Below, piece by piece: positions 2-17,616 of a stretch of 21,453 nucleotides of DNA. The stretch's first letter is position 1. Each line of letters opens with the position of its first letter. The notes beneath the pieces are model-generated. The model was not told the origin of the DNA and made no database searches. It saw only the letters and a program-made list of their open reading frames with translations. Position numbers and translations under genes: made by a program. Origin of the DNA: an uncultured virus (IMG/VR IMGVR_UViG_3300047400_000175) (taxonomy: Duplodnaviria; Heunggongvirae; Uroviricota; Caudoviricetes); IMG/VR virus record IMGVR_UViG_3300047400_000175; one strand, given 5' to 3'.

Positions 2-3000
2 CAGGGTATTATAGGCGCATTATCTGGTGGCTTAACTGGTAATGTTACAACACTAATTGGAAAGGGTACAGGAGCCTACAAGAAGTCATCTAATGTAGTT
101 CCTGATGATTTGCAGAAATTATCTACATTAAAGCAATATAAAGATTTAGTGTCTATGATTAATAGACATTCCAACATTGTACAAGACCAGAAAAATGCTG
201 TTAATAACAATGATACATTCTCTTACGAGAATTCTAAGAATGATGGATTTATAAATTATGTTTATACCAAATTAAAATATGAAAGAGGTGAAGACCTGCT
301 AGATGAATTAAAACAGTTCTCTAGTATGTCAGAAGTGGAATTTAAATCTAATTTTGGTAATGAATTATCTAAGGATGAAATATCACAAACTAAACAGTCT
401 GTTAGTGAATTTGTTAATGATAAGATAGATAAAGTTAAAAAAATACAAAGGACATTTGATGCTGTTCATGAGAAATTTCCAAATGCTTCTGAGGCCAATA
501 AAGAAAGACTTGCTTATAGTAGTTTAACTATCGATAATGCTAAATCTAGAAAGCAAGCATTAAATAAAGAAATTAATGAATTAATTAGAAAAAATGCTCC
601 CTCTAATGAATCACTAGTGTTGCTAGGTAATGATTATTTACACACATCTAAAGAGGGTAGAGAATCTTATATAGAGGCATTAAATAAATCCAATATTAAT
701 CCTTTAGATATTGAAGGTATTAAATCTAAAATATCAGATATTAATAAATTAGAAGAAAGAGAAAATCAATTTGTTAAGGAGTATCATGCTCTTACTAAAG
801 AGGACTATCAGAATAAACTAGACAAAGCTGATAAGAAAGTTGAGGCAAAAGTCACTCAAACTAATACTCCCAAGGAAAACCCATTTGATTCGCATACATC
901 AACAACACAAGAAACCCCTGTAGATACAGAATCTGAACTAACTCAAGAACAAGCTAGTTCTATGGGTATGGACTTTGGTAATACACCAAAGACAGATTGG
1001 CATTCATTAATAAATAATGCACAAGGTGAGAAGGAACTTAATGCTGTACAAGACCAAATAATTAAATCTGGTGAGGACAGTGTGGAATTATCAAATGCTA
1101 TTGGTAAGAAACGTGAGTTTTTAAATAAACAAAAAGAATTTAATACTAAATATAACTCTCTAAATGAGAAATCTACAACAGATGAATTAAAATCTGTTGG
1201 GAATGATTTAAATACTAATTATAAAGAGCATTATAAAGAAGAGCACATATCTCATTTAAGAGAATTATACAATAATGCTAAAAACAGAGAGGATGTAGCT
1301 AAATCTCAAACACCAACAAGAAAGAGTGAAAAAACTTCATTATTCTTTTTTAATAGATTTGCTGGTACTTCAGCACATCCAGTAGATATTGACGCTACTA
1401 GACTACTTTCATCCATTAATTTAAGTAATCCTAAACATTTAGAGAAATTAATACTAACTATTAATCCTTATAAAGGCCCATATGGACACAATCAAGAAAT
1501 ATCTTTACATTATATCAAGAATGATGGAACTAAGATGTTTCTTGGATTTCTAATTGATGGAACTTCTGAAAAAGCAACTGCTGATGTTTTAAATATTGGA
1601 GAAAAAGAAAAATCTAAATTATTTATTAATCATTTGTTGTCTTTGAACAAGTCTGAGTTTACAATGAATGAGTTAGTAAATTCTGGTTTGATTAATTTAA
1701 ATTTAGAAACAGATGGTTTTAATATACTTAGAACCCCTGAAGGAAGAATAGGTGTTGCTGAGTCCACTGTTTTTGAAAAGGATGCTTCTGGAAATGTCAT
1801 TATACTAGATAATCAATCTAAAACTAAAGTAAAGGGTGAAATGGGTGTTCTTAATGAGAACATGTCATGGGAGGATATTCAAAAATTAGGAGAAACAGAC
1901 AATTCAAGTAAATGGATTGATCCTACAGATCAGCAAATTGCTGAATTTGATAGATATTCTGTTGTCCTAAAAATAGGAGATAAAGTTTATTTTGTAGCTG
2001 CTCAGCCTAAACAAGTATCTGAAAAAGATTTTAATGATGCATTAAAACAAGCTAAAGAACTTAGTAAGAAATATCATGAAAATCATGCTGAAGGTGAGGC
2101 TAGATTAGAAGAATTAAAACATGATCAAGATAATACTAAATTAAATACTAAATTTTTCTTTGCTGTTCCTGATGCCAAAAAACTTGGAATTAAACAAGTT
2201 ATTGTAGATACTCCACCAGAAGGTGGACTTAGAGTACAATATACTAAGAACGATACACCTCACAAGGTATATTTAAATCATGAACAACTTTCTAATATAT
2301 CTACTAGTGAGGAGTTATTAAAAGCACTAAATCATCAATTAAAAGGTGGAGATGGTCAGGAGATGATGAGTGTAACAGAGTTACTGGACGATGGGTCAGA
2401 AGTAAAATCAGAATCTAGGTTATCGTCTAAAACTCCAGATTTTCAATTTAACGAGAAAACAAGTATTAGATATAAAGTAAGTCAAACAAATGCTAAAGAT
2501 GCAGCAGAGGTCTTACAATCATCACTAGATACTAAAAACCCATTTACTGCCACAGCATTGAGGGTTAAATTTAATTCTATTGCTGCAACACAAGAAGTAA
2601 AATCTGAACCAGAAGTTATATTGGCTGTTAGACCTAAAGGTTTAACTGTTGAAAATAATCCTGTAGTAGAGGATTCTGATGATATTATTAATAAACTATC
2701 AGATAATACTCCAGAGGAATTAATTGATTTAGAAAAAGCCAACAATTGGCTTAGGACACATCTTCCCTCATTTATAAGGGTAAAGGACATTGAGAGTATT
2801 TTAAGTCGTTTAAAAGCAAGAGGAATTCATTTTGGGGCATTCCAGAATGCTGTTATATATTTAAATACTAAAGCTGAACGTGGTACAGAGTATCACGAGG
2901 CCTTTCATGCTGTTTTCAGAACTTTGCTTTCTGATTCTGAAATTGCTAATTATTTAAAATTAACTAAACAAGAGAGAGGTAAAGCAACTCTAGAAGAAAT

Positions 3001-6000
3001 AAAGAACTTTAAAGAAAAATATACATTACAAGATAAATCTAATATTTATGTAGAAAATCTCATATATGAGGAATATATGGCAGATAAATTCATGGATTTT
3101 GTTAAACTTAAAGACAAAGCCATGGAAGATAAATCTATTAAAGGATGGTTTAAATTATTATGTAAGAAAATATCAGATTGGTTCAAATATGTATTTTCTA
3201 ATAAAACAACATTAGATGCTCTATATTATAAAATAGAGAAGGGAGGATTTAAGAATAACAATGCTATAAATAATAGATTTGGTACAAATGACATTGTTAA
3301 CAAATTATTAATATCTTGTAAAAAAGAAGGAGGTAAATTTGTTAAATGTTATTTATCTGCTCAAAAGACAGAGGATGCTCTAATGAATGTTTTGGTTTTA
3401 TATGGTCAGGCAATAAATGATAATTCAAATGTTGAAAAGTCTCTAAAGAAGAAAAAATCACAACTATTAGATGATGTTATTACTAATCTAGCTAATTCAT
3501 TTAGAGTTAATGAAACAAATTCTGCAATTTATGATGGACTTTCTACAGAAAAAGCAGAAGAATTTCAAAACTTTCTACAAAGTATGCTATATACTTTTAC
3601 TAATGCTGATTCTGTATATCTTATAAAGTCAGAAATTAATAGAAGGTATACAAATATTACAGGTATTTCTTCAGAGTCGGAGGAAATTAATGACAAAGAA
3701 AGTGAATTAGGTAATAGATGGGATATTGATTTTTCTAGTATTGGTGGATTTGGTAATCTTTCAAAACAAATTAGAGGCTACATGGCTACTACTCCAATTG
3801 AAGACACTAATGAGTGGGGCATGAAGACATACAGAGCAGTTAATGTTGCCTATGTATATAGTGGTTTAGAAAGAACTCTTTCTAATACTCCTAAAAATCA
3901 AATGATGGATAAATTAATTGCTTTTGCAGAGTTTAATCCTGACACTAAAGCATTTTTAGATAGAGTAAAGAAAGAAGTTGATTATAATGAGGAAACTAAG
4001 CAGTTTAATAATGAAAGTTATATATGGAAGGCAATAACTAATAATTTTAATACATATAAAGTTAATAGCAGGTCCATATTAATCGATGACAGAATAGAGC
4101 AGGCAAGAAATCCGAAAACTGGGTTGATTGATAAATCTGTACAAAAGAAACATTCAATACCGAGAGCTAATAGCAGAGATATTGACGTGAGAGAAGTTGA
4201 AAGATTTCATAGACAATTTATTAATAGTTATCAAGACTCAAAGTATCAAAGTGATATTCTGGATAAAGTAAAAAGTATTTATAATAAATTTTTATCTGTT
4301 AACCAAACAGCAAGTATTACTAATGTTAATATGCGTGAAGAGGCTAAAAATATTAAAAATGCTTTTTCAGAATTAGGATTTGATTTATCATTAGGATACA
4401 TTTCTTATTCTATCATAGCTAATAGAAAATCTCATACTAAAGAGCAAGAAAGAATTGTAACTTCTTATAAGGATGTTGTTCCTATTAATAAATTAGGTGG
4501 TAGAGATAATGGATTTTTGGATATTGTAGAACTTATTAAACAAGGTAAAAATCCTTTTGATAAGGAATCTGGAGATGATGCTACAGTTAAATTAAAACAA
4601 TTGGCATTAGCTAATGCTGAATTTGACGAGACTATAGGTAGTTCTACCTATCAAAATGAGGAAGGAGAAACTGTTTATGCATATTTGCGAGGTACACATT
4701 CTATTAGAAAGATGTATGAATTACAAAATCCTAGTACTCGAAAGATAACAACTTTAAAGCAATTTATTAAAGATCATCCTGAGTATTCTAAGTATGAAGC
4801 AGAGACTTATTTTAATATATTTAAAGTAAATCCTCTACTTAATGATGAGTATGCTGATTACATATTTGATAAAAATTTTACAATTGAATTACTTGGGGGA
4901 GGTAGAAATAGAGAAGAGGATGAAGGTAAGTCATTTGGAAGCATGACATTCAGAGATACCATTATTAGTATTTATACAGCATTTTTTAATTCCCAGGTTA
5001 GAAAAACAATTACAAAACCTGATGGAACAAAGTCATCTCTAACTACAGCATTGTTTTATCCTAAAGTACTAGAAGCTAGTTCTACAGGGTATTTAACACC
5101 ACTACCAATTAAGATATATTATGAAAATGGAAAATTATCAGAACTCGCTGAAAAACAATTGTTTAGTTATTTTACGCAGGAGGCAGAGAGAATATTAAAG
5201 ATTCAAAAGGAAATAAATTCTAACTACAAGGGTGTTTCTAAAATAGAAGGAGTCAATTATTCACTAAAAGGTAAGTCTCTAAGAGGATTAGAGTTTTTTC
5301 ATTTCTTTAAATTAAATCCTCAATTAGGTGACAAAGTTAAAAACTTTATTATAGAACAGGCAAAAAATGAAGAAAGGAAGGAGTTAAATTTTCCAGCTGA
5401 GTTATTAGGGGAGATAAAAGAAGCTATATCTAAGGAATATAATAAAGAATTGGAAGATCACATATCTCATTTAAAAGAAGTTAATTTATTAACTAGCGAT
5501 AGAGATGAATCTGGACATAAAACAAATGCTTTAATTGCTAGAAATAATCTTCTTCCTGGAGAGTTATTCAGAGAAGTGTTTTATAATGACAAAGATGGTG
5601 TTAGCAAATCCAAATTAGTATTAATTAAAGATGAATTAGGACATGCTTTTTATAATGATTTATTTAATTCATGGGCACTAAATAATTTATTGGATGGTGA
5701 TATTGCTTATTCTAGAAAGGATGCTGATGATTATGTAAAAAGAAATAAGGGAGCTAATGCTGCTACTCAGAATTATGGGGACGGGGTATCTTATGGGGCT
5801 ATATTAAGAGAACCTGTAGTCAAAAGTAATTATTCTAATAATAATATAGATATTGCTGATGCCCAACAATGGGAGAGTATGAAGTGGAGAATGAAGAAGT
5901 TGTTTGAGAAGGGTCAACTACCAAAAGTAGTTGAAGACATACTTAATCAAATTGCATCTGATGATATTAGGGGATTTTATGATGCCTCTAATTATATTCC

Positions 6001-9000
6001 TGAAAATCTATTGGATATTCTAAAAGAGAATCAAGCAATGTTATTGTCAGATAAGGATGTATATTATGATGGTGAGACTTACTTAAAACTCTCCTCAATG
6101 CTTCTTACAAGACAATTAACATCTATAAAGGTACCTATTGGCACTAAGGGAGCTGTGCAATCAAATGCTATTAATTTTAGGGGAGATAAAATAAATGCTC
6201 ATTGGTATATTGCCATACCAGGAATGGAGGATTTGCATAATATGCTTAATGAAATGGAGGAGAAGAATATTGACTATGTTGGTACAGAGTCTACTTCCAA
6301 AGGAATGACACAAGATGTTGGGGAATTGGGTAGCTTAACTCCACGCCCACATTTGAATTTAAATTGGGGTATGCAACACCCTGTACCGTCTAATAAGAAT
6401 TATGGTACAGATGGTTCACAAAAAAATGTATTAATTAGTTCTGAAACTGGTGAAAAAACAAAAGAATTAGCTAAAGAACATTCTAATTTATTAGCTCAGA
6501 GAGTTAAAATTGCTTCTGAACAAGCATTTAATATTTTAAAAGATAATCTTGGAAACAAAGAATATACATTAAAATATGTAATTGATAAGTTTCAAGAAAC
6601 ATTGCAGCAGTCTGGAGCTGATATAAATTTATTAGAATTATTTTCTAAGGATGATCGTACAGGGCTTTTAAAACATAATTTAAATCAACCAATATCTATA
6701 AATAAGTTTGAACAATTATACTATGCGCATTTTACAAAAGATGTATTGTATTCTAAGGCTCCAATGCACACATTTGTATTAGTTAGTTCTCATGGAATTA
6801 ATGTTACTATAGACAGTAGAACTAGTCAAATAGTACACAGAGCGGATATTAATGAAGAAAACTACCAATATTTAGTTTCTAGACCACTTAAGTATAATAA
6901 TGAAACTGGGGTAGGTGAAATTATGATACCATCTCATTTCAAGGAATTTGGACTAAAACCAGGTGATCATATACCTAGTGATTTGTTAGAATTTTTAGGA
7001 ATTAGAATTCCAACAGAAGATAAGAGATCTATGATGAAATTAAAGGTTGTTGATTTCTTGCCTACTTATTACGGTAGTATAATGGTTGGACCTAAGGAAA
7101 TTGTTGAGTTTTCTGGAGCTGACTTTGACGTTGATAAGATGTTTAGTAGAAGATATGAGCATTATATTGATGAAAATGGTAATTTACAAAAATATGACAG
7201 TGGTAATAAGACGATAGAGCAAAGATGGAATGAATATTTAATTTATAACTTACAACAAAATAAATTTGTTAAAAGTTTAATAAGTAAATATACTAAAGAT
7301 GATATTTCATTTCTATCATATGATGAATTTTTACAAGATGTTGATAACGAGGATAATGTAAAATCTTTAGAGAAATTAAAAGCATTAATTGCCTCTAAGG
7401 CTCTTCAACAAGCCCTTAGAGAATCTGGATTGCCAAGTACATTAGAAGAATTTAAAACCAAAACCAATAGTGATGGTGAACAAAATTTAGGAGTAATAAA
7501 TAATGATTTGCTTTCCAAGGAATTGCAAATTTATAGTTCTGAAGATAATAAAGACATCAGAACTGAAATTTCATCAAATCAAGAATTAAAAGATCTGGCT
7601 AATAAATCAGACAAATCAAAAAGCTCTATTTATGGCATTAATGGTAAAATGTCTTCTAAAGAGGCCAATGATACTGGCAAAAATAACATTGGTGTTGCTG
7701 CAATATCTAACATGGTGTTTAATTTACTTTCCAGAAATAAAGTTAAATTAATTAAACCAGTTAAAATAGGAGAAGATGTTTTTGATAGTTTTGAATTTAG
7801 AAATAATGATGGTAAACGTAGAACATCTATAATAGCAATGATATTAGCTGCCATGACAGATAACGCTAAGGATAGACTAGCAGCTAAATTTAATCTAACT
7901 ACTAATACCTTACCCAGTGCTTTGTATTTAATTTCAATTGGGGTTCCGTTAAAAACAACAATGAAATTAATTAAATCTGATGCAATTAAAAGATATACTG
8001 ATAGAATATCTGTAATTGGACAGTCAGCATTTAAATCAACTTATGAGAAACAAAATTACAATGAATCTAAAGTATTTAAAGATATTAGAGAGTTTTTAAT
8101 TAATAAATTTGAAAACTCTAAGCCTGAGAGAGAAGAATTAAAAATACCTTCTGGTATTTCAGAGGATATGTTTAACAGCGATGAAATAGTTGATCAATTA
8201 GCAATATTAAATTTCTTTGAAAAATTAAACAAAGATGCTCAAGTATTAAGAAAAATCAATACATTAATGCAATTAAACAAAGGAATGAAAATTTCTATAG
8301 CTGAAAATGATGAGGTTAATAATGCGTTGGAAGAACTAGGAATCAACTCTAAAACATTTACCAAGAAATCAGACAAGGAATTTAAAAAATTAAATCTACC
8401 ATTTGATGTTAGGAATATTTTCTCTGTAAGAAGTGGTTATTTCAATGAGTTATTGCACCAACATAATCAAGTGCACAATAATGTATCTAAGGAGTTCTTT
8501 GTGACTCAAAGTGCATTAGGAAGAACAATAGTTGATTTAATAAGAAATAATGTAAAGTCTACAACAGCCAGAAGCAAAAACACATTTCATAAAATATATA
8601 GAGATGTCCTATCATATTTAGCAATACAGTCATATAGAAGGTTTTTAGAAAATTCTAATATTAAAGATAAGGAAATGTGGTTAAAATCACTTTCTATTGA
8701 TAATGTATTAGGTGACGATGCTATTGCTAAGAAATTAGGAAAATTAAAGAAAGCATACCCTAATAACTTATTCTTAAAGAATATAACTAGTGATAAATTT
8801 AATATACTAAATAATACCTCTGAAGAGGGTAATATTGATACTATTACTGGAAATAGTAGGACTAGACTTCATCCTGAATATGTTGAAAAGATATTAAATT
8901 CTTTTCAGGAGTTATATTATGATAAATCCTCAAGACAAGATGCTATTGACATATTCAACTATATGATAATTAAAGATGGGATGCAGTTTAAAAATAACAG

Positions 9001-10795
9001 CATCTCTAGATTTATTGCTACATTTATGTATAATAACATGTCTCTAAATCTTAATAATTTAATTAATGATATTAAACAAGATAAGATTTCTAATGAGAAA
9101 TCCCAAGAGTTATTTGGTTTAGATAAAGCAGATGTGGTAGAGGACGCATTAGCTAGAATATTTTTATATAGAGAAAATATATATGATCTAATACCTTACT
9201 TATCTAAAGGTATGGATGGGGCATATTTAGATGAGAATGGTAATTTAATTATAGATTTCTGGCATAACTTTGATAAGTCTTGGAGTACTGAAAAGAAAAC
9301 AGAATTTGCTAAAAATGCAAGAAAGCAATTTCAAGCAAATAATCAAGTTATTAAACCTGATTTTGATGAGGAAGTAAAACAAGCAATTGTTGCTGATGGA
9401 CAAGTCTTTGAGGAAGAAGTTAAAAAGAAAACATTATATAAATTTCCAATATTTTTAAATACTAAAGATGGAATATTTAAATTAGTGTCTCTGAATTCTA
9501 AATCTGCTGATAAGTCATTGTTAGAATTAACTAAGAATGGAGAAACTATTTCTTCATATTATGCTAAATATGTTAAAGTTAGTTCATTTGGGGTCAAACA
9601 AATTAGCAATGTAGGGATATCAAAAGATGAAATTTCTAAAATAGAAGAAAGAAAATTACCTAAAAGTGAGAAAAACACATCTTTAAATACAAAAGAATCT
9701 TCAATTCTATCTCCAGAACAAGATAAGGCAATTACAGATATATTCAATGAACATTCAGAACAGATATATTCTCAATTAGGAAATAAAACTGTTGCTAATA
9801 ATGTTAAAATTAAATCTTGGAGTGAATTAAAAGAGGCTAAAAAAGCAATTACTCCAGAAGGTATAATTTCTACAAGAATCCCTAATACTAATGAACACTT
9901 TGGTAACCCTTTTAGTCATGACCCTGCTGGTAAAGCACAAGGATTAATTAAAACAGAAACTATTAAAGAAGCTGTTGAGAAATATATTGATTGGATTTTA
10001 AATGATAAAAACGATATTTTACAAAAACATGGAAAATCCTTACAACAACAATCTAATAATTTAGTTGAAAATATTAATAAAATAAAAGAATTTTTAAAAT
10101 CTAAAGGTTTTGGAAATTCTGAAATTTATTTAGTTGGTGGTAGAATAACTAATAAAAATCTTATAGAAGATTCTGATTTAGATTTAATATTAAAAGTTGA
10201 AAAAACTCCATTTGATAATATCCCAATAATAGATAAAGAAGATAATAAAATTTATTGGATGCAAGAAATTAATAAATTTATTCATCAATTTGGAAAAGAT
10301 ATTCATATTTTACAACATTTCAATAAAGAAACACCTAAAGGTGAAATAATAAATAAGAATTTAACTATTAATATTAAATTTAATAATCAACAAATCCAGC
10401 CAGAAAGAAGAGATTGGATTAGAAAACAATTAAAATCAGGAGAATTAAAAGATAAACCTATTTTTTATTACAAAGAACTTGGAGAACCTTCTCATGCAAC
10501 AGCTTTAGATTATTTAATCAATAAATATAATTGGAATAATACAAAAGAACAACAAGATAAAACTATTAAAGAAGAAGAAAGACTTATTAAAAATAGTGTA
10601 GATTTATCAAAGGATTCAGTATTAAATGATATATCTAATAGTTTAACAATACTCAATGAAGATAAAACACTGTCTCCTAAAGAAAAAAATAGTAAAATTA
10701 AAGCATTAAGAGAACTAGAAAATATTGTTAAAAATAAAAAGAATCTCACTGAGAAAGATCTTGGTGAAATAAGAAGAAAATTTTGTAATATATAA
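2..10795 (+). CDS. Giant crAss-like virion RNA polymerase polyprotein, 5'-truncated by the window: zincin domain, two-barrel RNAP, C-terminal DUF4326-like/nucleotidyltransferase module
   Basis: The frame is open from nt 2 (QGIIGALSGGLTGNVTTLIG...), so the TTG at 110 is not the true start. Catalytic GADFDVDK (DxDxD at 7121-7135) is preceded by GIRIPT (6998-7015). Also present are KRNKG (~5740), DAQ (5858), GKNNIGVAA (~7680) and DNAKD (7859), which I recall as motifs of crAss-like/phi14:2 gp66-type RNAPs. Ends TAA 10793-10795. Confidence 0.93.
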   Translation, partial: QGIIGALSGGLTGNVTTLIGKGTGAYKKSSNVVPDDLQKLSTLKQYKDLVSMINRHSNIVQDQKNAVNNNDTFSYENSKNDGFINYVYTKLKYERGEDLLDELKQFSSMSEVEFKSNFGNELSKDEISQTKQSVSEFVNDKIDKVKKIQRTFDAVHEKFPNASEANKERLAYSSLTIDNAKSRKQALNKEINELIRKNAPSNESLVLLGNDYLHTSKEGRESYIEALNKSNINPLDIEGIKSKISDINKLEERENQFVKEYHALTKEDYQNKLDKADKKVEAKVTQTNTPKENPFDSHTSTTQETPVDTESELTQEQASSMGMDFGNTPKTDWHSLINNAQGEKELNAVQDQIIKSGEDSVELSNAIGKKREFLNKQKEFNTKYNSLNEKSTTDELKSVGNDLNTNYKEHYKEEHISHLRELYNNAKNREDVAKSQTPTRKSEKTSLFFFNRFAGTSAHPVDIDATRLLSSINLSNPKHLEKLILTINPYKGPYGHNQEISLHYIKNDGTKMFLGFLIDGTSEKATADVLNIGEKEKSKLFINHLLSLNKSEFTMNELVNSGLINLNLETDGFNILRTPEGRIGVAESTVFEKDASGNVIILDNQSKTKVKGEMGVLNENMSWEDIQKLGETDNSSKWIDPTDQQIAEFDRYSVVLKIGDKVYFVAAQPKQVSEKDFNDALKQAKELSKKYHENHAEGEARLEELKHDQDNTKLNTKFFFAVPDAKKLGIKQVIVDTPPEGGLRVQYTKNDTPHKVYLNHEQLSNISTSEELLKALNHQLKGGDGQEMMSVTELLDDGSEVKSESRLSSKTPDFQFNEKTSIRYKVSQTNAKDAAEVLQSSLDTKNPFTATALRVKFNSIAATQEVKSEPEVILAVRPKGLTVENNPVVEDSDDIINKLSDNTPEELIDLEKANNWLRTHLPSFIRVKDIESILSRLKARGIHFGAFQNAVIYLNTKAERGTEYHEAFHAVFRTLLSDSEIANYLKLTKQERGKATLEEIKNFKEKYTLQDKSNIYVENLIYEEYMADKFMDFVKLKDKAMEDKSIKGWFKLLCKKISDWFKYVFSNKTTLDALYYKIEKGGFKNNNAINNRFGTNDIVNKLLISCKKEGGKFVKCYLSAQKTEDALMNVLVLYGQAINDNSNVEKSLKKKKSQLLDDVITNLANSFRVNETNSAIYDGLSTEKAEEFQNFLQSMLYTFTNADSVYLIKSEINRRYTNITGISSESEEINDKESELGNRWDIDFSSIGGFGNLSKQIRGYMATTPIEDTNEWGMKTYRAVNVAYVYSGLERTLSNTPKNQMMDKLIAFAEFNPDTKAFLDRVKKEVDYNEETKQFNNESYIWKAITNNFNTYKVNSRSILIDDRIEQARNPKTGLIDKSVQKKHSIPRANSRDIDVREVERFHRQFINSYQDSKYQSDILDKVKSIYNKFLSVNQTASITNVNMREEAKNIKNAFSELGFDLSLGYISYSIIANRKSHTKEQERIVTSYKDVVPINKLGGRDNGFLDIVELIKQGKNPFDKESGDDATVKLKQLALANAEFDETIGSSTYQNEEGETVYAYLRGTHSIRKMYELQNPSTRKITTLKQFIKDHPEYSKYEAETYFNIFKVNPLLNDEYADYIFDKNFTIELLGGGRNREEDEGKSFGSMTFRDTIISIYTAFFNSQVRKTITKPDGTKSSLTTALFYPKVLEASSTGYLTPLPIKIYYENGKLSELAEKQLFSYFTQEAERILKIQKEINSNYKGVSKIEGVNYSLKGKSLRGLEFFHFFKLNPQLGDKVKNFIIEQAKNEERKELNFPAELLGEIKEAISKEYNKELEDHISHLKEVNLLTSDRDESGHKTNALIARNNLLPGELFREVFYNDKDGVSKSKLVLIKDELGHAFYNDLFNSWALNNLLDGDIAYSRKDADDYVKRNKGANAATQNYGDGVSYGAILREPVVKSNYSNNNIDIADAQQWESMKWRMKKLFEKGQLPKVVEDILNQIASDDIRGFYDASNYIPENLLDILKENQAMLLSDKDVYYDGETYLKLSSMLLTRQLTSIKVPIGTKGAVQSNAINFRGDKINAHWYIAIPGMEDLHNMLNEMEEKNIDYVGTESTSKGMTQDVGELGSLTPRPHLNLNWGMQHPVPSNKNYGTDGSQKNVLISSETGEKTKELAKEHSNLLAQRVKIASEQAFNILKDNLGNKEYTLKYVIDKFQETLQQSGADINLLELFSKDDRTGLLKHNLNQPISINKFEQLYYAHFTKDVLYSKAPMHTFVLVSSHGINVTIDSRTSQIVHRADINEENYQYLVSRPLKYNNETGVGEIMIPSHFKEFGLKPGDHIPSDLLEFLGIRIPTEDKRSMMKLKVVDFLPTYYGSIMVGPKEIVEFSGADFDVDKMFSRRYEHYIDENGNLQKYDSGNKTIEQRWNEYLIYNLQQNKFVKSLISKYTKDDISFLSYDEFLQDVDNEDNVKSLEKLKALIASKALQQALRESGLPSTLEEFKTKTNSDGEQNLGVINNDLLSKELQIYSSEDNKDIRTEISSNQELKDLANKSDKSKSSIYGINGKMSSKEANDTGKNNIGVAAISNMVFNLLSRNKVKLIKPVKIGEDVFDSFEFRNNDGKRRTSIIAMILAAMTDNAKDRLAAKFNLTTNTLPSALYLISIGVPLKTTMKLIKSDAIKRYTDRISVIGQSAFKSTYEKQNYNESKVFKDIREFLINKFENSKPEREELKIPSGISEDMFNSDEIVDQLAILNFFEKLNKDAQVLRKINTLMQLNKGMKISIAENDEVNNALEELGINSKTFTKKSDKEFKKLNLPFDVRNIFSVRSGYFNELLHQHNQVHNNVSKEFFVTQSALGRTIVDLIRNNVKSTTARSKNTFHKIYRDVLSYLAIQSYRRFLENSNIKDKEMWLKSLSIDNVLGDDAIAKKLGKLKKAYPNNLFLKNITSDKFNILNNTSEEGNIDTITGNSRTRLHPEYVEKILNSFQELYYDKSSRQDAIDIFNYMIIKDGMQFKNNSISRFIATFMYNNMSLNLNNLINDIKQDKISNEKSQELFGLDKADVVEDALARIFLYRENIYDLIPYLSKGMDGAYLDENGNLIIDFWHNFDKSWSTEKKTEFAKNARKQFQANNQVIKPDFDEEVKQAIVADGQVFEEEVKKKTLYKFPIFLNTKDGIFKLVSLNSKSADKSLLELTKNGETISSYYAKYVKVSSFGVKQISNVGISKDEISKIEERKLPKSEKNTSLNTKESSILSPEQDKAITDIFNEHSEQIYSQLGNKTVANNVKIKSWSELKEAKKAITPEGIISTRIPNTNEHFGNPFSHDPAGKAQGLIKTETIKEAVEKYIDWILNDKNDILQKHGKSLQQQSNNLVENINKIKEFLKSKGFGNSEIYLVGGRITNKNLIEDSDLDLILKVEKTPFDNIPIIDKEDNKIYWMQEINKFIHQFGKDIHILQHFNKETPKGEIINKNLTINIKFNNQQIQPERRDWIRKQLKSGELKDKPIFYYKELGEPSHATALDYLINKYNWNNTKEQQDKTIKEEERLIKNSVDLSKDSVLNDISNSLTILNEDKTLSPKEKNSKIKALRELENIVKNKKNLTEKDLGEIRRKFCNI
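2740..3260 (+). other. Zincin-like metallopeptidase domain within the RNAP polyprotein
   Basis: GAFQNAVIYL...GTEYHEAFHAVF (HExxH at 2894-2908) with a downstream EEYMAD helix (3068-3085) that could supply the third ligand. Boundaries approximate. Confidence 0.85.
5680..8000 (+). other. RNA polymerase catalytic core (double-psi beta-barrel region)
   Basis: Ordered motifs KRNKG, DAQ, YLKLS, SKG, RIPT, GADFDVDK, GKNNIG, DNAKD. Boundaries approximate. Confidence 0.85.
9860..10534 (+). other. DUF4326-like domain split by an insertion
   Basis: N-half FGNPF (9899-9913)...EAVEKYIDWIL (to 10000). C-half PERRDWI...GELKDKPIFYY...PSHATAL (10400-10510). This resembles the DUF4326 pattern GNPF...Y..W...L.GK.L.C.C.P..CH...L, but the cysteines are absent. 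Confidence 0.6.
10040..10393 (+). other. Minimal Pol-beta-superfamily nucleotidyltransferase domain nested in the DUF4326-like domain
   Basis: A helix followed by EIYLVGGRITNKNLIEDSDLDLIL (10121-10192) matches the hG[GS]x9-13DhD signature. A candidate third Asp lies in GKDIHIL. Confidence 0.75.
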
Positions 10796-13700
10796 TGTAT
10801 TGTCCTAATCCACATAGTGAGCTCTATAAAGAGCTAATGATAATAAACAAAAACGATAAAGATCTAGTTTATTATGCTTATCATGAAATAGAAAAATTGC
10901 AAGAAATGGGACTTATATCTAATAAAAGATATAAGATGCCTGATGGAACAATGCGTTATACTATTAATAAAACAATTAATGAAAAATCATTAGCTGAGTC
11001 TTATAGAGGTGGTAGCGCTTTTACAATTGACTTAGCTAAAAAACAAAAATTAGATAATTATATTAAACAATTTAATATTAGTTTTTTAAATACGCAGATT
11101 AGTAAATCTGGTAAAGCAATATTTGTTAATATCACACCTGTTAAAAATCATGTTATTGAAGATATAAGAAGTGAGGACGAGCGTAAATTAGAAGAAGGAT
11201 ATAAACAAAATAAAAAAGAAGGTAACTGGGATATCAATTCTGAAGGAGATATTGTGCATTCTAATGATATGTATCAAGAAGATGAAAAAGTAAATTATGA
11301 TTTTAAAGTAGTTAAGATAATTAACGATAATATTAAAGAAATATTAAATTGGTTTAATAATAAATCTATAAATAAAGAATTATTTTGGAATAAGATTCAA
11401 CAATTAGGAATACCGAAAGAGCAATTAGAATTATTAAAAAACTCTGAAGGAAATACAATTTCTCAAAAACTAGTTTCTTTTTTAGCTAATTATAGTTATA
11501 CTGTTGAGATTAATACTGCTAAAAATGCTTCCGATAAAGCTAAAAAAGATAGTTGGAATAATGCTATTGAACAAGGTTTAAACCCCTGGGAAGAAGGTGT
11601 TGAAAATGATTTTCAAGGAAGTCCTACTCAATATTATTCTAATTTAACAGTACCAGGAGGAACTAACTACACAGAAAATGAAATAGCTACATCAGCTATT
11701 ATACCTTCTATAAAAGGACATGCTCAATTTGCTACAGATAATGGAATAGGTTGGTTTAGAAGTGATGAAAAAATTAATAGTACTCCAGATGTAATATTGC
11801 CTATAGGTACAAGTGGAAGTGGAAAATCTACTTTTATAAAATCTTTACCTCAAGATAATTTAGTAATTATTGAACCTGATTCTATGAGAGTAGAATTTAC
11901 AGGTAATATGAATGATAAATCTAAAGATAAAGAGATTTATGAAGAAGCCGCTAAAAGAGCTGTACAAACAATTAAAGATGGAAAACAAGTAGTATTTGAT
12001 ACAACTAATTTAACTAAGGATAAAAGACTACCTTTTATTGAAGCTATCAAAAAAGAAATTCCAAATGCTAATATTCAATACAAGTTAATGGAGTTAAATC
12101 CTGAACTTGCTAAACAAAGAATAAAAGCACAATTAGCAAGAGGTGAAAATAGAGCAAATGTTTCAGATGCTACAATAGATAGACACGCTGAATCATATAA
12201 ACAAATGCTTATAGATATTAAATCTGAACCTATTAGTGAATACAAAGAGCTAAATCAAACTTCTAAAACAAGACGTATTCTTGAAGTACAATCTGATTTA
12301 TTTCAGAAAGGTAGAGATAGTAAAGAGTTAGTTAATACTAATGGGATGATTAGAAGTTGGGACAACCCTGAATTTCTTAAAGCAATAAATGATAATCAAT
12401 TTCTACAACTTCTAAATAAAGACAATAACTGGGTAACATTCTTTGTTAAATCTATTATACAAGACTCTGCTAAGAAAGGATATGAGAAAGTATTATTTCC
12501 TAAAGGAGATACAGCTAGTAAAATTGAAGGTCATAGTACTTTAGAAGACTTTAAAAAACAAAAAGAAAATAGAATAAAAGAACTTGAAAAAACTCAATTA
12601 AAATATTTTGGAGAACAACTTACATCTGATTATGAACCTACAGGTAATATAACAAATTGGTATAGTACTGAACAAGAAGCAGAAGAAGCAGCTAAAAAAG
12701 AATATGAAAATTATCAAATAGGACAAACTGATGGTTTTGATAACTCTAAAGAAATAAATCAACTTAAACAAGAACTTGAAAGAGTAGAAAAAGAAGGATT
12801 TGGTGCTTTAAAACCTATTTATAAATTCTATGAAGAAACTATAGGTAATATTCTTAAAAAGAATTATAAAGATAATGTAAAAGAAATTACTGATGAATAT
12901 GGTAATAAGTGGTATCAATTAGATATTATTGATAAACATAAAGAAAATATATTATTTCAAAATAATAATACTTCTAAACAATTTAATATTCAATTAAATT
13001 CTAAAATTAAGAATTTCTTATCTAAAATAGGTGTAAATACAGTTAATGTAGAGCAGATATTAGATAAAAATGGTAATCCTATTTCTGCTATAGCAGTTGC
13101 TAAAATGTTAAATAAGATTATACAAGTAGTTGAAAATAAAGCAGACATAACAACACTTCCTGAAGAAACAGCCCACTTCTTTGTAGAACTATTAAAAGAT
13201 AACCAACTTCTTAATAAAATGTTAAAGGATATAGTTAATTATCCTGAATATAAAGAAGTAAGAGATTCTGAATTTTATCAAAAACAATATAAAGGAGATG
13301 AAACTTTAATTAGAAAAGAAGCGGTTGGTAAATTAATAGGAAGAATTATAGCTAAACAAGAAACATCAGAACAAGCTACTTCTTGGTGGGGAAGAGTATG
13401 GAATAAAATAAAGTCTATTTTTAATGGTAAATCTTCATTATTTGAAGAGATTGCTTCTGATATAAGGAAGGGTGATATATCTAAATTAGATAGCTCTAAA
13501 TCAATTTCTGGAAGTTTTTATCAAGATGAGCAATCTAAAAAATATGGAGATTATGAAGTAATTTCAGGAATGCCTTTTCAAGAATCTACTTTGGAAAAAA
13601 TGAAATCTGGTGAACAGCGAATAACCATTAGACCAAGAAATCATGTAAGTGGTAATTATAAGTTAGAAAATGGTGCAGAATTTAACATCATTAATTTAGG

Positions 13701-16419
13701 TAAAAAATCCATAGCAGATTTTAAAAATCCTGATTGGGTTAAAAAGAATTTTAAAGGTGATGATTATACAGAATCTGAAGAAAAATTTAAACACATTAAT
13801 CAATGGTTTGATGGTAAAAATGAAATGTATGTTTATCAAATAACTAAAATTGATAATAAAATCAAGAATGAGTATGTTAAAGAAAATCCTAATTTAGAAC
13901 AGACTGAAGAAAGTTTGAATAAACCAAAGGAAAAACAAAAATATCTTGGTAAATTTGAATTAATATATCAAAGACGTATTTCTAGATTAACCAAAGAATT
14001 AAATGAAAAAGGTATTTCTCAAGCTAGACATGATAAAATTAAAGCTGAGATAGATTATACATTAAAACAACTAGAATCCTTTAATACAGACCAATCAGAA
14101 GACAAATTAGAGTCTTCTGGGGAATTTGGTGAACACTTATTGAATTTAGCTAAGGAAAAATTAAATAATATATTAGAATCTAAACAAGAGCCTACAATGG
14201 ATATGATTAATTATTTTAATGAAATAATTGATACATATACAGAACATGATATATTAGCAAGTAAAGCCTTGTCTCTAAAAAGACAAGTGAGTAAACTTGC
14301 TGACAAGGCGTTGAACGAGAAATTACAATCAGAGACAGGACATTCATTAGCTGAAGCAGAGAAGCAAAATCAGGATATTCCATTTATGAGAAAATGGACA
14401 GGTTCTCTATTAGATTTAGATAATATATATGCTAATACTATAGGTAGAATAATTAGAAGTTCTCAAACTAAAATAGAAAGATTATCTAAAGCTTTACAAA
14501 GTGAAATAAATGGCAAATTAAAGGCGTTAGAAAGCACTTCTGAGAGAAAAGCTAGTGAGATATATAAAGAGTGTATTCATGTCTCTAAAGATGGGAAAAC
14601 AACATTACTTCCTAATCCAGCAGGATTATCTAAGGAGGCAGAGGAATTTTATTGGTTTTACAGACAAAAAATGAGAGAGTTAATAAAAATAATGCCCACT
14701 TTAACATATAGAAATAGTGAAGGGGTATTACAAGTATTTAATCTTACTGAATTTTTCATACCAAATGTTCCAAAAGACATTACTTTAAAAGACAAATTAA
14801 AGGAAAGTAAAAATCCGTTAAGAGTAACTGGGGTAATTAAAACTAGAAAACTAGGAAATTCTGTAAGGGATGAGGATGATAAAGCTGATATTATCCCATT
14901 GGAATATATTTTGTCACTTGATGAATCTGCTAAAACAGATGATTTGGGATATGCTTTATTTAAATTTGCAACTAGTGTATATAACCAGCATGAAATGTCT
15001 AGTATATTACCCACATTGAGAACTATTCAACGTAAAATTTATGATACTAATTATATACAAAAATCTAATCCTAAGAATACAAAATCAGGAAAGGATTCTG
15101 GTATTTATAAAATAGTTGATGGTTTTATTGATGCTCAAGTTAAAGGTAAGTATAAAAAAGAACAAGCAATGTACTCTTACAATCAATATGAAAAAGATGG
15201 AGATGTATTTGAGGATTATGTAGACATTAGGGGCACAATAGATAATATGTTAAGATGGAATAGCTTAAAAAGAATAGGTCTTTCTATCCCAGGAGCAATT
15301 GCCAACGTTGAATTTGGTCAGTTGTCTAACTTAATTGAAGCTATAGGAGGAGAACATTATAATAGGAAGCAACTAAGACAAGCTAAAAAGATATTTATTT
15401 CTCAAAATTTCAATAAAGACTCAATTCTTAATTCTGAATTACTATCTAAATATAATATTTTGCAAGAGTTAAATGATTATGAATTAGCAGAATCTGTTAA
15501 ATTCGGAAGTAGAAAAAGAATATCTAAAGAAAAATTAATGGAAATTATGTATGCCCCTCAGAAATGGGGTGAAAAATACATACAAAGTAGTTCATTATTA
15601 GCAATGATGTTACATGATGGATATATTGATTCTAATGGAGAATTAACTACTAAGTGGACTAATAGTACAGAGAAGCAAAAAGAAGACTTTATATTAAAGG
15701 TAACAGGCGTTAATAACAAATTACACGGACGTTATTCTCCAAAAGAGGCTGCTATTGCTCAACAAGATGTATTTTATAGGGCAATTAGTCAATTTAGAAA
15801 GTTTATTCCTGCTGCTTACGAGGCTAGATTTGATAAAAAACATTTTGATAGTAGATTAGGTCATGAAATTGAGGGCAGGTATTTAACATTTGGTAGAGAA
15901 GTATTAGGTAAGATTTTTACAGGTGAGGGATGGAATAATCTATTCCTACCATTAATATCAGCACAAAAAGCCTTAGCTAAAGATAATTTAACAGAGAATG
16001 AAATAGCTAATATTAGAAAAACAGCATTTGAATCACTGATCGTTATAGGTTGTGTAATATTAGGTATGATTGGTGGTGGTAGTTCTGATGAAGATAAAAA
16101 ACGTAGAAAATCAGCTTGGTACAAATCACTAATGCTTTCTTTGAATAGAGTTAGTGGGGACGTAGCATTCTTCTATAGTCCAGATCAATTAAATAACTTG
16201 GCTAAGAATGCTGTACCAATGACCCAACTAACAGGAGATATTATTAAACTTGGTAAGTATACAATGTCTCAATTTGGAGATGCTCCTGAATTTAAAGGAG
16301 GTAATGCCAAGGGTCAAAATAAATTAGTTAAAGGTTTATTAAATATTACTCCTGGTTCTAATATTATTCAAGATGCCACTAAGGTGTTAAATGATAATCC
16401 ACTAGATGAAATAAAATAA
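10795..16419 (+). CDS. Large crAss-like virion cargo/ejection protein (1874 aa), multidomain: PGGxNY...EVQSD domain with nested P-loop kinase, degenerate zincin, ASCH-like domain, C-terminal region with a hydrophobic helix
   Basis: Directly follows the RNAP gene with a TAATG overlap. N-terminal MYCPN. C-terminal LHGRY...QFRKFIP...RF...EGRYLTF...NIRK and hydrophobic SLIVIGCVILGMIGGG (~16033-16080) resemble the protein encoded after the RNAP in crAss-like phages (recalled, not searched). Confidence 0.8.
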   Translation: MYCPNPHSELYKELMIINKNDKDLVYYAYHEIEKLQEMGLISNKRYKMPDGTMRYTINKTINEKSLAESYRGGSAFTIDLAKKQKLDNYIKQFNISFLNTQISKSGKAIFVNITPVKNHVIEDIRSEDERKLEEGYKQNKKEGNWDINSEGDIVHSNDMYQEDEKVNYDFKVVKIINDNIKEILNWFNNKSINKELFWNKIQQLGIPKEQLELLKNSEGNTISQKLVSFLANYSYTVEINTAKNASDKAKKDSWNNAIEQGLNPWEEGVENDFQGSPTQYYSNLTVPGGTNYTENEIATSAIIPSIKGHAQFATDNGIGWFRSDEKINSTPDVILPIGTSGSGKSTFIKSLPQDNLVIIEPDSMRVEFTGNMNDKSKDKEIYEEAAKRAVQTIKDGKQVVFDTTNLTKDKRLPFIEAIKKEIPNANIQYKLMELNPELAKQRIKAQLARGENRANVSDATIDRHAESYKQMLIDIKSEPISEYKELNQTSKTRRILEVQSDLFQKGRDSKELVNTNGMIRSWDNPEFLKAINDNQFLQLLNKDNNWVTFFVKSIIQDSAKKGYEKVLFPKGDTASKIEGHSTLEDFKKQKENRIKELEKTQLKYFGEQLTSDYEPTGNITNWYSTEQEAEEAAKKEYENYQIGQTDGFDNSKEINQLKQELERVEKEGFGALKPIYKFYEETIGNILKKNYKDNVKEITDEYGNKWYQLDIIDKHKENILFQNNNTSKQFNIQLNSKIKNFLSKIGVNTVNVEQILDKNGNPISAIAVAKMLNKIIQVVENKADITTLPEETAHFFVELLKDNQLLNKMLKDIVNYPEYKEVRDSEFYQKQYKGDETLIRKEAVGKLIGRIIAKQETSEQATSWWGRVWNKIKSIFNGKSSLFEEIASDIRKGDISKLDSSKSISGSFYQDEQSKKYGDYEVISGMPFQESTLEKMKSGEQRITIRPRNHVSGNYKLENGAEFNIINLGKKSIADFKNPDWVKKNFKGDDYTESEEKFKHINQWFDGKNEMYVYQITKIDNKIKNEYVKENPNLEQTEESLNKPKEKQKYLGKFELIYQRRISRLTKELNEKGISQARHDKIKAEIDYTLKQLESFNTDQSEDKLESSGEFGEHLLNLAKEKLNNILESKQEPTMDMINYFNEIIDTYTEHDILASKALSLKRQVSKLADKALNEKLQSETGHSLAEAEKQNQDIPFMRKWTGSLLDLDNIYANTIGRIIRSSQTKIERLSKALQSEINGKLKALESTSERKASEIYKECIHVSKDGKTTLLPNPAGLSKEAEEFYWFYRQKMRELIKIMPTLTYRNSEGVLQVFNLTEFFIPNVPKDITLKDKLKESKNPLRVTGVIKTRKLGNSVRDEDDKADIIPLEYILSLDESAKTDDLGYALFKFATSVYNQHEMSSILPTLRTIQRKIYDTNYIQKSNPKNTKSGKDSGIYKIVDGFIDAQVKGKYKKEQAMYSYNQYEKDGDVFEDYVDIRGTIDNMLRWNSLKRIGLSIPGAIANVEFGQLSNLIEAIGGEHYNRKQLRQAKKIFISQNFNKDSILNSELLSKYNILQELNDYELAESVKFGSRKRISKEKLMEIMYAPQKWGEKYIQSSSLLAMMLHDGYIDSNGELTTKWTNSTEKQKEDFILKVTGVNNKLHGRYSPKEAAIAQQDVFYRAISQFRKFIPAAYEARFDKKHFDSRLGHEIEGRYLTFGREVLGKIFTGEGWNNLFLPLISAQKALAKDNLTENEIANIRKTAFESLIVIGCVILGMIGGGSSDEDKKRRKSAWYKSLMLSLNRVSGDVAFFYSPDQLNNLAKNAVPMTQLTGDIIKLGKYTMSQFGDAPEFKGGNAKGQNKLVKGLLNITPGSNIIQDATKVLNDNPLDEIK
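11785..12235 (+). other. AAA_33 / T4 polynucleotide-kinase-like P-loop kinase domain
   Basis: VILPIGTSGSGKST (Walker A 11806-11832), EPDSMR (DxxR), VVFDTTNL and the lid AKQR...R...RANVS appear in the order seen in PNK-type kinases. Confidence 0.85.
12990..13500 (+). other. Degenerate zincin-like domain (EExxH instead of HExxH)
   Basis: AIAVAKMLNKIIQV...TTLPEETAHFFV (13159-13176)...KEAVGKLIG...WWGRVWNKIK parallels the layout of the intact zincin in the upstream gene. Confidence 0.6.
13567..13855 (+). other. ASCH/PUA-like domain (putative RNA binding)
   Basis: MPFQESTLEKMKSGEQRITIRP resembles the ASCH N-terminal pattern F...I.SG.K..T.R, although the conserved Lys is replaced. Ends in a beta-strand-like MYVYQI. 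About 95 aa. Confidence 0.45.
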
Positions 16420-16430: not shown

Positions 16431-16471
16431 TAAAGAAGGCGAGGAATTAACCCTCGCCTTCTTTATTTATT
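16431..16471. terminator. Bidirectional intrinsic terminator between convergent transcription units
   Basis: Perfect 14-bp inverted repeat TAAAGAAGGCGAGG (16431-16444) / CCTCGCCTTCTTTA (16452-16465) with a 7-nt loop and T-rich exits on both strands. Lies between stops at 16419 (+) and 16467 (-). Confidence 0.9.
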
Positions 16472-17225
16472 TCCTACTTAAATACACTGCCTCACTAATA
16501 GTAAAATACCTATTACAGGATTTACAATTCATTTTCTTCTTTCTAATACCTAATGAAGTAATTAAATTACCATCAGATATTGTTCTATTACTTCCACATC
16601 CAGGACAAGAACATCTATTATTACCTTTAAGAACGCCTGCATGTACTTTAGGAGCTGTAAATACTTCTAATTTATTATAAATTTTTTCCAATAACAATAC
16701 ATCTCTTTTGCAATATTTAACCATTTTAGTCATTGCTGAGACATCATTGTTTTGTATAATTTTATGCCATAATTCTATACCTCCTGTATCTTTCTTACCT
16801 CCAAATCCAAAAAACTTACCTAAGTAATCAAGTCTATTAGAATTAAATTTAAATTTACTTCTACTTATTTTAAGTGTGTCTATAGACTGTATTATTGGTA
16901 TATTCTTAGCTCCATGAAATAATAATCTAGTTCTAAACCAAGGGATATCAAATTTATCAGAATTATGCCCACAAACTACATCAACATCTTTTAAGATACT
17001 TGCAAATTTCAAACATAAATCTTTATCATCTCCTTTTTTCCAAGTAAGATATTCTATTTTACTAGAATTATTATATTTATAACATAAACAAATTATTGCA
17101 GACTCTTTTAATACTTGATTATAATCTATTGAAAGCTTATAACCAGGTCTCCAAAACCAACCTTGGCAATAACTTGTCTCTATGTCAAAAAATAATATTT
17201 TAGGAGAATTTTTATTTTTCTTCAT
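16467..17225 (-). CDS. DEDD (RNase_H_2/DnaQ-like) 3'-5' exonuclease with C-terminal zinc ribbon
   Basis: ExoI FFDIET, ExoII GHNSDKFDIP, ExoIII YCKRDV. C-terminal CPGCGS...CKSC. Confidence 0.88.
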   Translation of the reverse strand: MKKNKNSPKILFFDIETSYCQGWFWRPGYKLSIDYNQVLKESAIICLCYKYNNSSKIEYLTWKKGDDKDLCLKFASILKDVDVVCGHNSDKFDIPWFRTRLLFHGAKNIPIIQSIDTLKISRSKFKFNSNRLDYLGKFFGFGGKKDTGGIELWHKIIQNNDVSAMTKMVKYCKRDVLLLEKIYNKLEVFTAPKVHAGVLKGNNRCSCPGCGSNRTISDGNLITSLGIRKKKMNCKSCNRYFTISEAVYLSRK

Positions 17226-17243
17226 ATTTTATATTATTTTATT

Positions 17244-17280
17244 TAAAAATAAAAAAATGGGCCGACTTTAGCCTAACCCA
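17244..17280 (-). terminator. Intrinsic terminator immediately upstream of the exonuclease gene
   Basis: Minus-strand RNA UGGGUU-A-GGC-UAAA-GUC-GGCCCA followed by UUUUUUUAUUUUU. The stem needs G-U pairs that form only on the minus strand. Confidence 0.7.
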
Positions 17281-17402
17281 ATTGTAATAGCACAGTTATT
17301 AAAGACCATCTACTACGGCTACCTAGAATTTCTTGCGCTCAGAATCTAGGGCACTCAGTTTCATATTCAGTATATAATATCTGATAGAGGATTTACTGGT
17401 CC
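17281..17402 (-). ncRNA. Candidate structured RNA (unassigned family)
   Basis: Largest non-coding gap in the window; about 40% GC (58 of 145 nt over 17258-17402, hand count) with AT-rich flanks. Nested stems GACCA/UGGUC, UCAG/CUGA and CCUAGA-UUCU/AGAA-UCUAGG. Confidence 0.4.
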
Positions 17403-17415
17403 AATATTTTGAATA

Positions 17416-17616
17416 TTAATTATTAATATTCTTTCTCCAAATAGCACGGTTTTTATTAAACACTGTAATAAAACCAGGCAAAGTTACTTTAGATTTATTA
17501 TTAACCTTTTTAAAGGCAAAATAAGCCACTACAGGAGCTTTCTTATAATATCCAGGCTTACTATTCAACCAACTTTTAGCACTGCGTGTGCTCATTTTAC
17601 TATTATTGTTATTCAT
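17416..17616 (-). CDS. Small basic hypothetical protein (66 aa)
   Basis: Start overlaps the end of the upstream gene, as elsewhere in the operon. No recognisable motif. Confidence 0.55.
   Translation of the reverse strand: MNNNNSKMSTRSAKSWLNSKPGYYKKAPVVAYFAFKKVNNKSKVTLPGFITVFNKNRAIWRKNINN

Follow-up and report, generated by a model that had tools for sequence, protein, structure and literature searches.

Candidate enzyme cassettes in two giant cargo-type proteins of an uncultured crAss-like phage

Introduction

A 21,453-nucleotide stretch of DNA from an uncultured virus of the Caudoviricetes (IMG/VR record IMGVR_UViG_3300047400_000175; "the window" below refers to this whole stretch) contains, on either side of the junction of two giant genes, several unrelated enzyme-like domains embedded in frame. 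Open reading frame 1 (ORF1) encodes most of a virion RNA polymerase (RNAP) fusion and ORF2 a partner protein of 1874 amino acids (aa); we refer to the ORF1 product as encoded in the window as P0001, to its full-length form as P0123 and to the ORF2 product as P0002. An initial annotation had recognized, in about 4 kb across the junction, a nucleotidyltransferase (NTase) motif, a polynucleotide kinase (PNK)-like kinase and an ASCH-like domain, and had proposed that the three form one virion-delivered kit for RNA end repair or anti-defense. We lean instead towards the reading that the two proteins behave as polyvalent proteins, in which a conserved scaffold carries independent, exchangeable, in-frame enzyme cassettes. 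Polyvalent proteins have been described as injected multidomain proteins with shuffled domains; fusions of N4 virion RNAPs with effector domains are among the examples (Iyer et al. 2017, PMC5512222).

Results

The kinase and the ASCH-like part of ORF2 occur independently among relatives

We compared the best 120 of 687 ORF2 relatives segment by segment along P0002. Two scaffold segments recurred in nearly all of them: segment A, ending in GIGWFRSD, was present in 116 of the 120 relatives and segment B, starting with TRRILEVQSDLFQKGR, in 119, though neither gave a match in Pfam, PHROG or the Protein Data Bank (PDB). The kinase was found in 17/120 (the list being ranked by similarity to a kinase-containing query, so that this fraction does not equal a population frequency), the ASCH-like part in seven and the N-terminal 185 aa in three, and in no relative did the kinase and the ASCH-like part stand together. 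The position of the kinase also varied, with the cassette preceding scaffold A in some proteins and following scaffold B, or lying far downstream, in others, which makes three positions or more. For 15 of the 17 carriers, the kinase was 85-92% identical, compared to 35-74% for the scaffolds. The scaffold itself can be described as a conserved, insertion-tolerant domain.

Closer relatives were compared individually. In L004, only a short, kinase-free stretch parts the scaffold flanks. P0003 shares at least 97% identity with P0002 over aa 1-240 and 540-1874 but diverges at aa 241-539, where it has no kinase. Among five related phage records, the kinase family AAA_33 was detected in that of L003 only, and in neither of the two complete genomes. 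Further domains were found in other ORF2 homologues, namely His_Phos_1 and Kinase-PolyVal in that of L005 (9146-17572) and ART-PolyVal in that of L007 (11954-13726) and, weakly, of L008 (10849-17184), and the precomputed Pfam annotation of ORF2 relatives lists LysM and PDDEXK_1. At the DNA level, the cassette flanks showed no direct repeats or linkers, only AT-rich chance matches. When 50,697 phage records were searched by tblastn, the matches of ORF2 to Crassvirales records were confined to aa 687-892, and the C terminus of the RNAP matched none of the records.

These counts bear directly on the proposal of a single repair kit, according to which the kinase would treat 5' ends, the NTase would extend 3' ends in a CCA-like manner and the ASCH-like domain would bind the RNA, the three together acting on tRNA or mRNA cut by host anticodon nucleases. 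The kit would fit a kinase of the Pnkp/T4 Pnk healing type, the action of ASCH-family proteins on RNA (the top fold matches of the ASCH-like part are the ac4C amidohydrolase YqfB and a Zymomonas ASCH protein) and the placement of all three domains in a 4-kb stretch encoding parts of probably injected proteins. Against it, the domains occur independently across relatives: none of the seven ASCH-like carriers has the kinase, the 17 kinase carriers lack the ASCH-like part, the NTase is present in only two of 120 RNAP relatives, and the near-identical P0003 lacks just the kinase patch. In addition, repair systems such as T4 Pnk-Rnl or Pnkp-Hen1 link the kinase to a 3'-phosphatase and/or a ligase, but searches of P0001, P0002 and the 12 downstream ORFs of the window found no phosphatase, 2H/HD phosphoesterase, cyclic phosphodiesterase or RNA ligase, and RNA end repair would therefore be incomplete by the content of the window. 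We thus regard one joint kit as very unlikely.

The NTase is inserted into a conserved domain of the RNAP

The NTase was found in 2/120 RNAP relatives, and the protein of the window itself accounts for one of the two. The homologue in L007 aligns to aa 3240-3338 of the ORF1 product and then directly to aa 3466-3527, so the NTase is an insertion, and the same holds against L008. The domain into which it is inserted, hereafter the host domain, is about 60-86% identical across 119 of the 120 relatives, in giant proteins that are otherwise very divergent. Inserts of at least 60 aa (60-197 aa) occupy the same loop in 17 of 119 relatives and are of at least eight unrelated kinds, among which, by reading of the sequences, one has a P-loop motif and one an HExxH motif. 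The host domain thus has a hot spot for insertions at this loop. The NTase of P0196 is found elsewhere, between other modules and not within the host domain. L006 was considered as a second NTase-bearing RNAP and rejected, its insert being of a different, 135-aa type. Elsewhere in the giant RNAP proteins, Pfam tests and precomputed annotation gave PIF1/AAA_30 helicase, NADAR, AlkB-like, AAA_33, SprT-like, SLT and intein parts.

The host domain had no Pfam match. Its nearest Atlas clusters are DUF4326 (score 0.88), which we treat as a lead only. An assignment to NADAR was rejected: the only similarity was a Z of 4.5 to 8bau, and the Pfam NADAR matches in relatives are separate, neighboring cassettes. 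P0243, a short predicted protein of 214 aa, has a C-terminal part with about 97% identity to the latter half of the window's NTase insert and the host-domain half that follows; with its unrelated N terminus, it is either a fragment, a chimeric gene call or a recombinant.

The kinase cassette resembles the kinase domain of bacterial Pnkp

The initial assignment of a PNK-like kinase was borne out. Residues 333-469 of P0002 (nt 11791-12201) matched AAA_33 in Pfam at 61.1 bits, the cut-off being 27, and the cassette also matched PHROG 505 "polynucleotide kinase" (4e-11) and, within the bacterial Pnkp model TIGR04075, the kinase part (1.6e-8). Against the PDB, the kinase domain of Clostridium thermocellum Pnkp (CthPnkp; E = 3e-5) was followed by Pnkp1 (1e-3) and, weakly, by mammalian PNKP. 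The Walker A P-loop GTSGSGKST aligns with that of CthPnkp, and the Asp of "EPDSMR" aligns with a position occupied by Asp in 4jst but by Asn in 4mde, a variant entry. In the D-x-x-R motif, the Asp is catalytic and the Arg binds the acceptor. We then aligned 44 members of the kinase family (20 from giant proteins, 23 small proteins and the window), and the P-loop, the D..R pair, DxTN and several Arg positions were invariant in all of them. We take the cassette to be a live Pnk-type kinase with an inferred substrate. Phage T4 Pnk is presumably among its closest known relatives.

Compared with bacterial Pnkp (4jst/4gp7, and Capnocytophaga Pnkp1, 4xrp), the window likewise has the P-loop GSGKS, Asp-x-x-Arg and DxTN, residue by residue. 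Unlike bacterial Pnkp, it has the kinase domain only, without a phosphoesterase or adenylyltransferase/ligase domain (33 bits to TIGR04075, against a full-length cut-off of 750 bits), and no Hen1 or ligase neighbor is present in the window, the kinase being embedded instead in a cargo-type protein of 1874 aa. Small proteins of the same kinase family also exist, some on contigs of 17-96 kb, and some of them match KTI12 (PF08433) in precomputed annotation.

We also considered whether the cassette might be a zeta-toxin-like, small-molecule or nucleotide kinase, rather than a polynucleotide kinase, that might weaken the wall during entry or inactivate a host metabolite or immune signal. The AAA_33 family is broad, the kinase has neither a phosphatase nor a ligase as partner, and Pfam Zeta_toxin was matched at E = 6.2e-5 and 23.0 bits, just over the 22.3-bit cut-off. 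Zeta-toxin-like kinases have, moreover, been reported in polyvalent proteins, with the proposal that they may weaken the cell wall during entry (PMC5512222). The AAA_33, PHROG 505 and TIGR04075 matches nevertheless lie far above the Zeta_toxin score, and neither zeta nor PezT toxin chains figure among the 18 PDB matches at E ≤ 1; Pnkp kinase domains lead that list, and mammalian PNKP is on it. A kinase of the zeta type thus appears unlikely, and a Pnk-type kinase is the reading that we retain.

The kinases of the window and L003 are identical at 128 of 162 aa (79%) but at only 77% of nucleotides, and this pair is therefore not a very recent transfer.

The NTase has an MNT-like predicted fold

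A Pol-beta NTase had been proposed from a motif, and its identification as a minimal nucleotidyltransferase (MNT), a type that includes toxin-modifying enzymes, agrees with that proposal. The motif hG[GS]-x9-13-Dh[DE]h is present in the window as YLVGGRITNKNLIEDSDLDLIL. Residues 3358-3442 of P0001 (nt 10073-10327) matched NTP_transf_2 at E = 0.0013 and 19.5 bits, under the 21-bit cut-off. An exhaustive phmmer search of 1.84 billion representatives with the 136-aa NTase piece gave five relatives at E ≤ 1e-3, two of them fragments. When the NTase relatives (the phmmer matches and P0196, n = 6) were scanned with Pfam, NTP_transf_2 was the best match in five, with P0247 alone meeting the cut-off (21.6 bits). 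GG, R, DSD and D are invariant in all six aligned members, at 29-51% overall identity. A profile of the family matched the CD-NTase 6e0k (2.2e-4) best in the PDB, ahead of 6e0m (0.036), OAS2 (0.14), CdnE (0.17) and then the MNT chains 2rff and 1ylq.

We next turned to structure prediction. An AlphaFold model of aa 3250-3545 had an overall confidence (pLDDT) of 72.3, and of 80-94 over most of the NTase insert. In a structural comparison, the best match was 2rff_A (Z 7.7, root-mean-square deviation [rmsd] 3.8, 96 of 111 residues), a Z below 8 being moderate by the tool's own note; the next match had a Z of 5.9, and further ones were 5yep, 1wot, 4x4n, 1ylq and 8xeh. Foldseek placed the MNT antitoxins 7ae9 and 2rff first, at E of about 0.1, and a BFVD fold search with the model gave nothing below E = 0.12. 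As for the active site, the "DIHIL" Asp is kept in four of the five NTase members that reach that site, the window among them, and the "LEH" Glu of four of five relatives is Gln in the window. Given the family-level Pfam matches, the invariant residues and the PDB profile and structural matches, the motif is probably more than a chance match and the predicted fold MNT-like, with the third catalytic carboxylate uncertain.

The module shares with MNT enzymes (2rff, 1wot, 1ylq; antitoxins 7ae9, 6m6u, 5yep, 8xeh) the same small alpha/beta core and the G[GS]...DxD motif. It differs from the MNT antitoxins in that we found no HEPN partner gene for it and that it is nested inside another domain of a 4002-aa protein; its sequence similarity to MNT enzymes is marginal, and the best PDB match of the family profile is a CD-NTase core. 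For the repair of RNA ends, the kinase is of the healing type, as had been proposed, but the NTase is closer to MNT enzymes than to CCA-adding enzymes: it is a core of about 110 aa without the head, neck and body of the latter, and its Z to 2rff is 7.7, against 4.6 to the CCA enzyme 4x4n.

The third module is weakly ASCH-like

Residues ~929-1019 of P0002 are weakly ASCH/PUA-like according to a structural model. This region had no Pfam match to ASCH up to E = 1 and no usable Atlas match, and a search of three related phage records with PF04266 found nothing. The model, built from an alignment of the window and six relatives (A1, from which P0003 was omitted as nearly identical to the window), had a pLDDT of 63.7. 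In VIA-align, five of the seven top matches were ASCH-family chains, namely YqfB (Z 3.9), 3s9x (3.2), 6kir (3.0), 1t62 (2.9) and 5guq (2.7), at rmsd 4.3-5.2. Foldseek gave nothing at E ≤ 0.001 (best E = 0.54), and a second structural search of the PDB gave only 2kku and 2z0t, at Z 2.6. ASCH domains have a GxKxxExR-type motif at the first strand; here, the stretch reads SGEQRITIRPR in the window and GEKRITIR in the consensus of the relatives, with only one Arg (R57) invariant in 7/7 sequences. All three modules lie in frame around the gene junction, as initially annotated; the NTase and the kinase are well supported, whereas the ASCH-like part is weak, its model being poor.

We further asked whether the inserts could be decayed or noncatalytic passengers, i.e., structural filler or linkers in a cargo that is unfolded and then refolded. 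Features that would suit filler are the Gln in the window's NTase, the NTase score under the Pfam cut-off, the ASCH-like part without a sequence-level family match and the dispensability of the cassettes in relatives. Filler would, on the other hand, not be expected to show the conservation seen here, with the P-loop, D..R and further Arg of the kinase invariant in giant and small proteins alike (44/44) and GG and DSD.D invariant in the six NTase members despite their low overall identity. We therefore hold this explanation to be very improbable.

The carriers are homologous to crAss001 cargo proteins

By homology, both genes are of the crAss cargo type, as initially suggested. By tblastn, residues 37-666 and 1291-1490 of P0123 match a Kehishuvirus "RNA-polymerase subunit" of 2310 aa, and residues 2490-2786 a Kehishuvirus "putative RNA polymerase" of 2412 aa; residues 687-909 and 1441-1768 of P0002 match a Kehishuvirus "RNA-polymerase subunit" of 1349 aa, encoded by the gene after the putative RNA polymerase. 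Judged by protein size, the 2310-, 2412- and 1349-aa proteins correspond to gp47, gp50 and gp49 of crAss001. All three crAss001 proteins were detected in virions by mass spectrometry and named cargo proteins (Bayfield et al. 2023, PMC10172136), and DFDxD, present in ORF1 as DFDVD, has been given as the motif of the virion-packaged RNAP in all crAss-like phages (Drobysheva et al., 10.1101/2020.03.07.982082). The carriers resemble the crAss001 cargo (gp47, gp49, gp50) and the phi14:2 virion RNAP gp66 in homology, in the DFDxD motif and in the order of the genes that close the late module. In contrast to crAss001, a single protein of 4002 aa here unites the gp47-like part with the gp50-like part, and enzyme cassettes have been added. 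In Kehishuvirus, the two parts are encoded by separate, differently oriented genes. On the strength of these sequence matches, it is most likely that the virion contains the products of ORF1 and ORF2 and that they are injected.

The window covers residues 406-4002 of P0123 (a 405-aa offset), and a TAATG overlap at 10793-10797 joins the stop of ORF1 to the start of ORF2 (Table 1).

Table 1. Positions of the two carrier genes and of their segments in the window
Feature	Position	Strand	Description
ORF1	2..10795	+	5'-open; last 3597 aa of the 4002-aa virion RNAP fusion (gp47-like N-terminal part and gp50-like part)
DFDVD	7121..7135	+	DFDxD catalytic motif of crAss-like virion RNAPs
Host domain, N-terminal half	9761..10015	+	..STRI..EHFGNPFSHDPAGK..EKYIDWI..; in 119/120 relatives; probably DUF4326-like (lead)
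NTase cassette	10016..10396	+	Minimal Pol-beta-type nucleotidyltransferase, 127 aa, in host-domain loop; GG..DSDLD motif at 10136-10183
Host domain, C-terminal half	10397..10606	+	..WIRKQLKSGELKDKPIFYYKELGEPSHATALDYLINKY..; in 119/120 relatives; contiguous with the N-terminal half in most
C-terminal tail of ORF1	10607..10795	+	Helical; Cys three residues before the end (codon 10784-10786), then stop
ORF2	10795..16419	+	1874-aa cargo protein, homologue of crAss001 gp49-type "RNA-polymerase subunit"; conserved scaffold and variable cassettes
Scaffold segment A	11350..11781	+	aa 186-329
Recombination patch	11515..12411	+	aa 241-539; differs from P0003; contains the kinase cassette
Kinase cassette	11782..12261	+	Pnkp-type P-loop kinase, aa 330-489; AAA_33 match at 11791-12201; insertion relative to L004 and P0003
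Scaffold segment B	12262..12894	+	aa 490-700
ORF2 middle region	12895..13494	+	Shared with gp49 homologues of crAss001-like phages; in 100/120 relatives; tblastn to Crassvirales records
ASCH-like part	13579..13851	+	Weakly ASCH/PUA-like small barrel, about aa 929-1019; lineage-specific part of ORF2

Several further features of the window were observed. A HEAFH motif (HExxH, zincin type) lies at 2894-2908, in the gp47-like part of ORF1, a region without a Pfam match in the window protein, and might mark a processing peptidase, a zincin-like metallopeptidase being frequent, though not universal, in polyvalent proteins; SprT-like gave a weak match in the L007 homologue, and SprT is listed in the precomputed annotation of P0175. 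Cysteines are few, with four in the 4002 aa of P0123 (positions 1459, 1511, 1521 and 4000) and three in the 1874 aa of P0002 (positions 3, 1260 and 1753). Cysteines flank the gene junction (the ORF1 codon given in Table 1 and codon 10801-10803, ORF2 residue 3), internal ones being present too. Convergent with ORF2, a minus-strand module of replication type at 16467-21451 encodes a DNA polymerase exonuclease subunit, a MazG-like pyrophosphatase and a 5'-3' exonuclease, with a clear HNH endonuclease at 20785-21222 and a weaker HNH-like match at 18516-19163, also on the minus strand. A PADLOC scan of both giant proteins found nothing, and an NCBIfam scan of both gave the Pnkp kinase part and one chance ABC match only.

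Discussion

Our preferred reading, then, is that of two polyvalent-type proteins with exchangeable cassettes. Like the proteins of that class, those of the window are large, probably injected products of late virion genes that combine unrelated enzyme domains in one polypeptide and shuffle them among relatives, and those relatives carry Pfam "PolyVal" domains (ART-PolyVal, Kinase-PolyVal). The domain list in PMC5512222 includes Pol-beta NTases thought to transfer nucleoside monophosphate (NMP) to proteins, as well as zeta-like kinases, and the N4-like virion RNAPs described there are fused to MPTase, ART, lysozyme and PBECR domains. The carrier here differs, being a crAss-type two-barrel RNAP with a gp49-type partner and not an N4 T7-like virion RNAP, and whereas the NTases presented in that source are firmicute and fused to ArdC-N, the NTase of the window is a domain within a domain, at an insertion hot spot. 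The terms "crAss," "polynucleotide kinase," "ASCH" and "DUF4326" do not occur in the main text of PMC5512222, and a search of one literature library returned no published account of such cassettes. The suggestion that the combination had not been described thus stands as far as this search goes, but not for the principle, which has been published as polyvalent proteins; the combination is a new instance of that theme and not a new principle.

According to this polyvalent-type reading, the ORF1 and ORF2 products, to judge by their homology, most likely travel in the capsid and leave it before the DNA or together with it, so that every cassette would reach the cell ahead of phage gene expression. 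The kinase would most likely phosphorylate 5'-OH ends of RNA or DNA, for example those left by metal-independent host RNases, and the NTase would most likely transfer NMP to a nucleotide or a protein, in the way that HEPN toxins are modified by MNT antitoxins; the ASCH/PUA-like barrel would at most bind nucleic acid. Each cassette would act alone, as an accessory and probably host-specific means of counter-defense or host takeover, with no fixed three-part repair pathway.

A number of observations weigh against this reading. No locus with the NTase family, from which co-occurrence between the first and second gene could be read, was found in the viral-contig scan or in two single-protein metagenome scans. 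The kinase count is biased by the ranking of the ORF2 relatives, and the high conservation of the kinase, as between the window and L003, may reflect selection rather than recent transfer. The evidence for packaging of the two products in this phage consists of homology to crAss001 proteins. Finally, the NTase scores under its Pfam cut-off and has an uncertain third carboxylate, with Gln for the "LEH" Glu of its relatives although the "DIHIL" Asp is kept, and the ASCH-like assignment comes from Z values below 4 for a low-confidence model.

A bolder version of the cassette reading would see the cargo as a plug-in platform for counter-defense at time zero, with the NTase neutralizing HEPN toxins or immune nucleotides through NMP transfer, the kinase healing RNA ends cut by host defenses or marking them for decay, both ahead of phage transcription, and dedicated docking sites for the exchange of effectors among phages at the DUF4326-like loop and the GWFRSD/TRRILEVQSD junction. 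In this full form, we find the idea improbable.

Since the polyvalent-protein principle is published and the substrates are assigned only by inference, the value of the window is limited. P0002 and P0003 nevertheless form a natural, nearly identical pair with and without the kinase, i.e., a ready-made comparison. In the gut and in the environment, few phages are as abundant as crassviruses, which inject roughly 5 MDa of protein. If the cassettes are active, the cargo proteins would give these phages a modular means of bringing ready-made enzymes to bear on host defenses.

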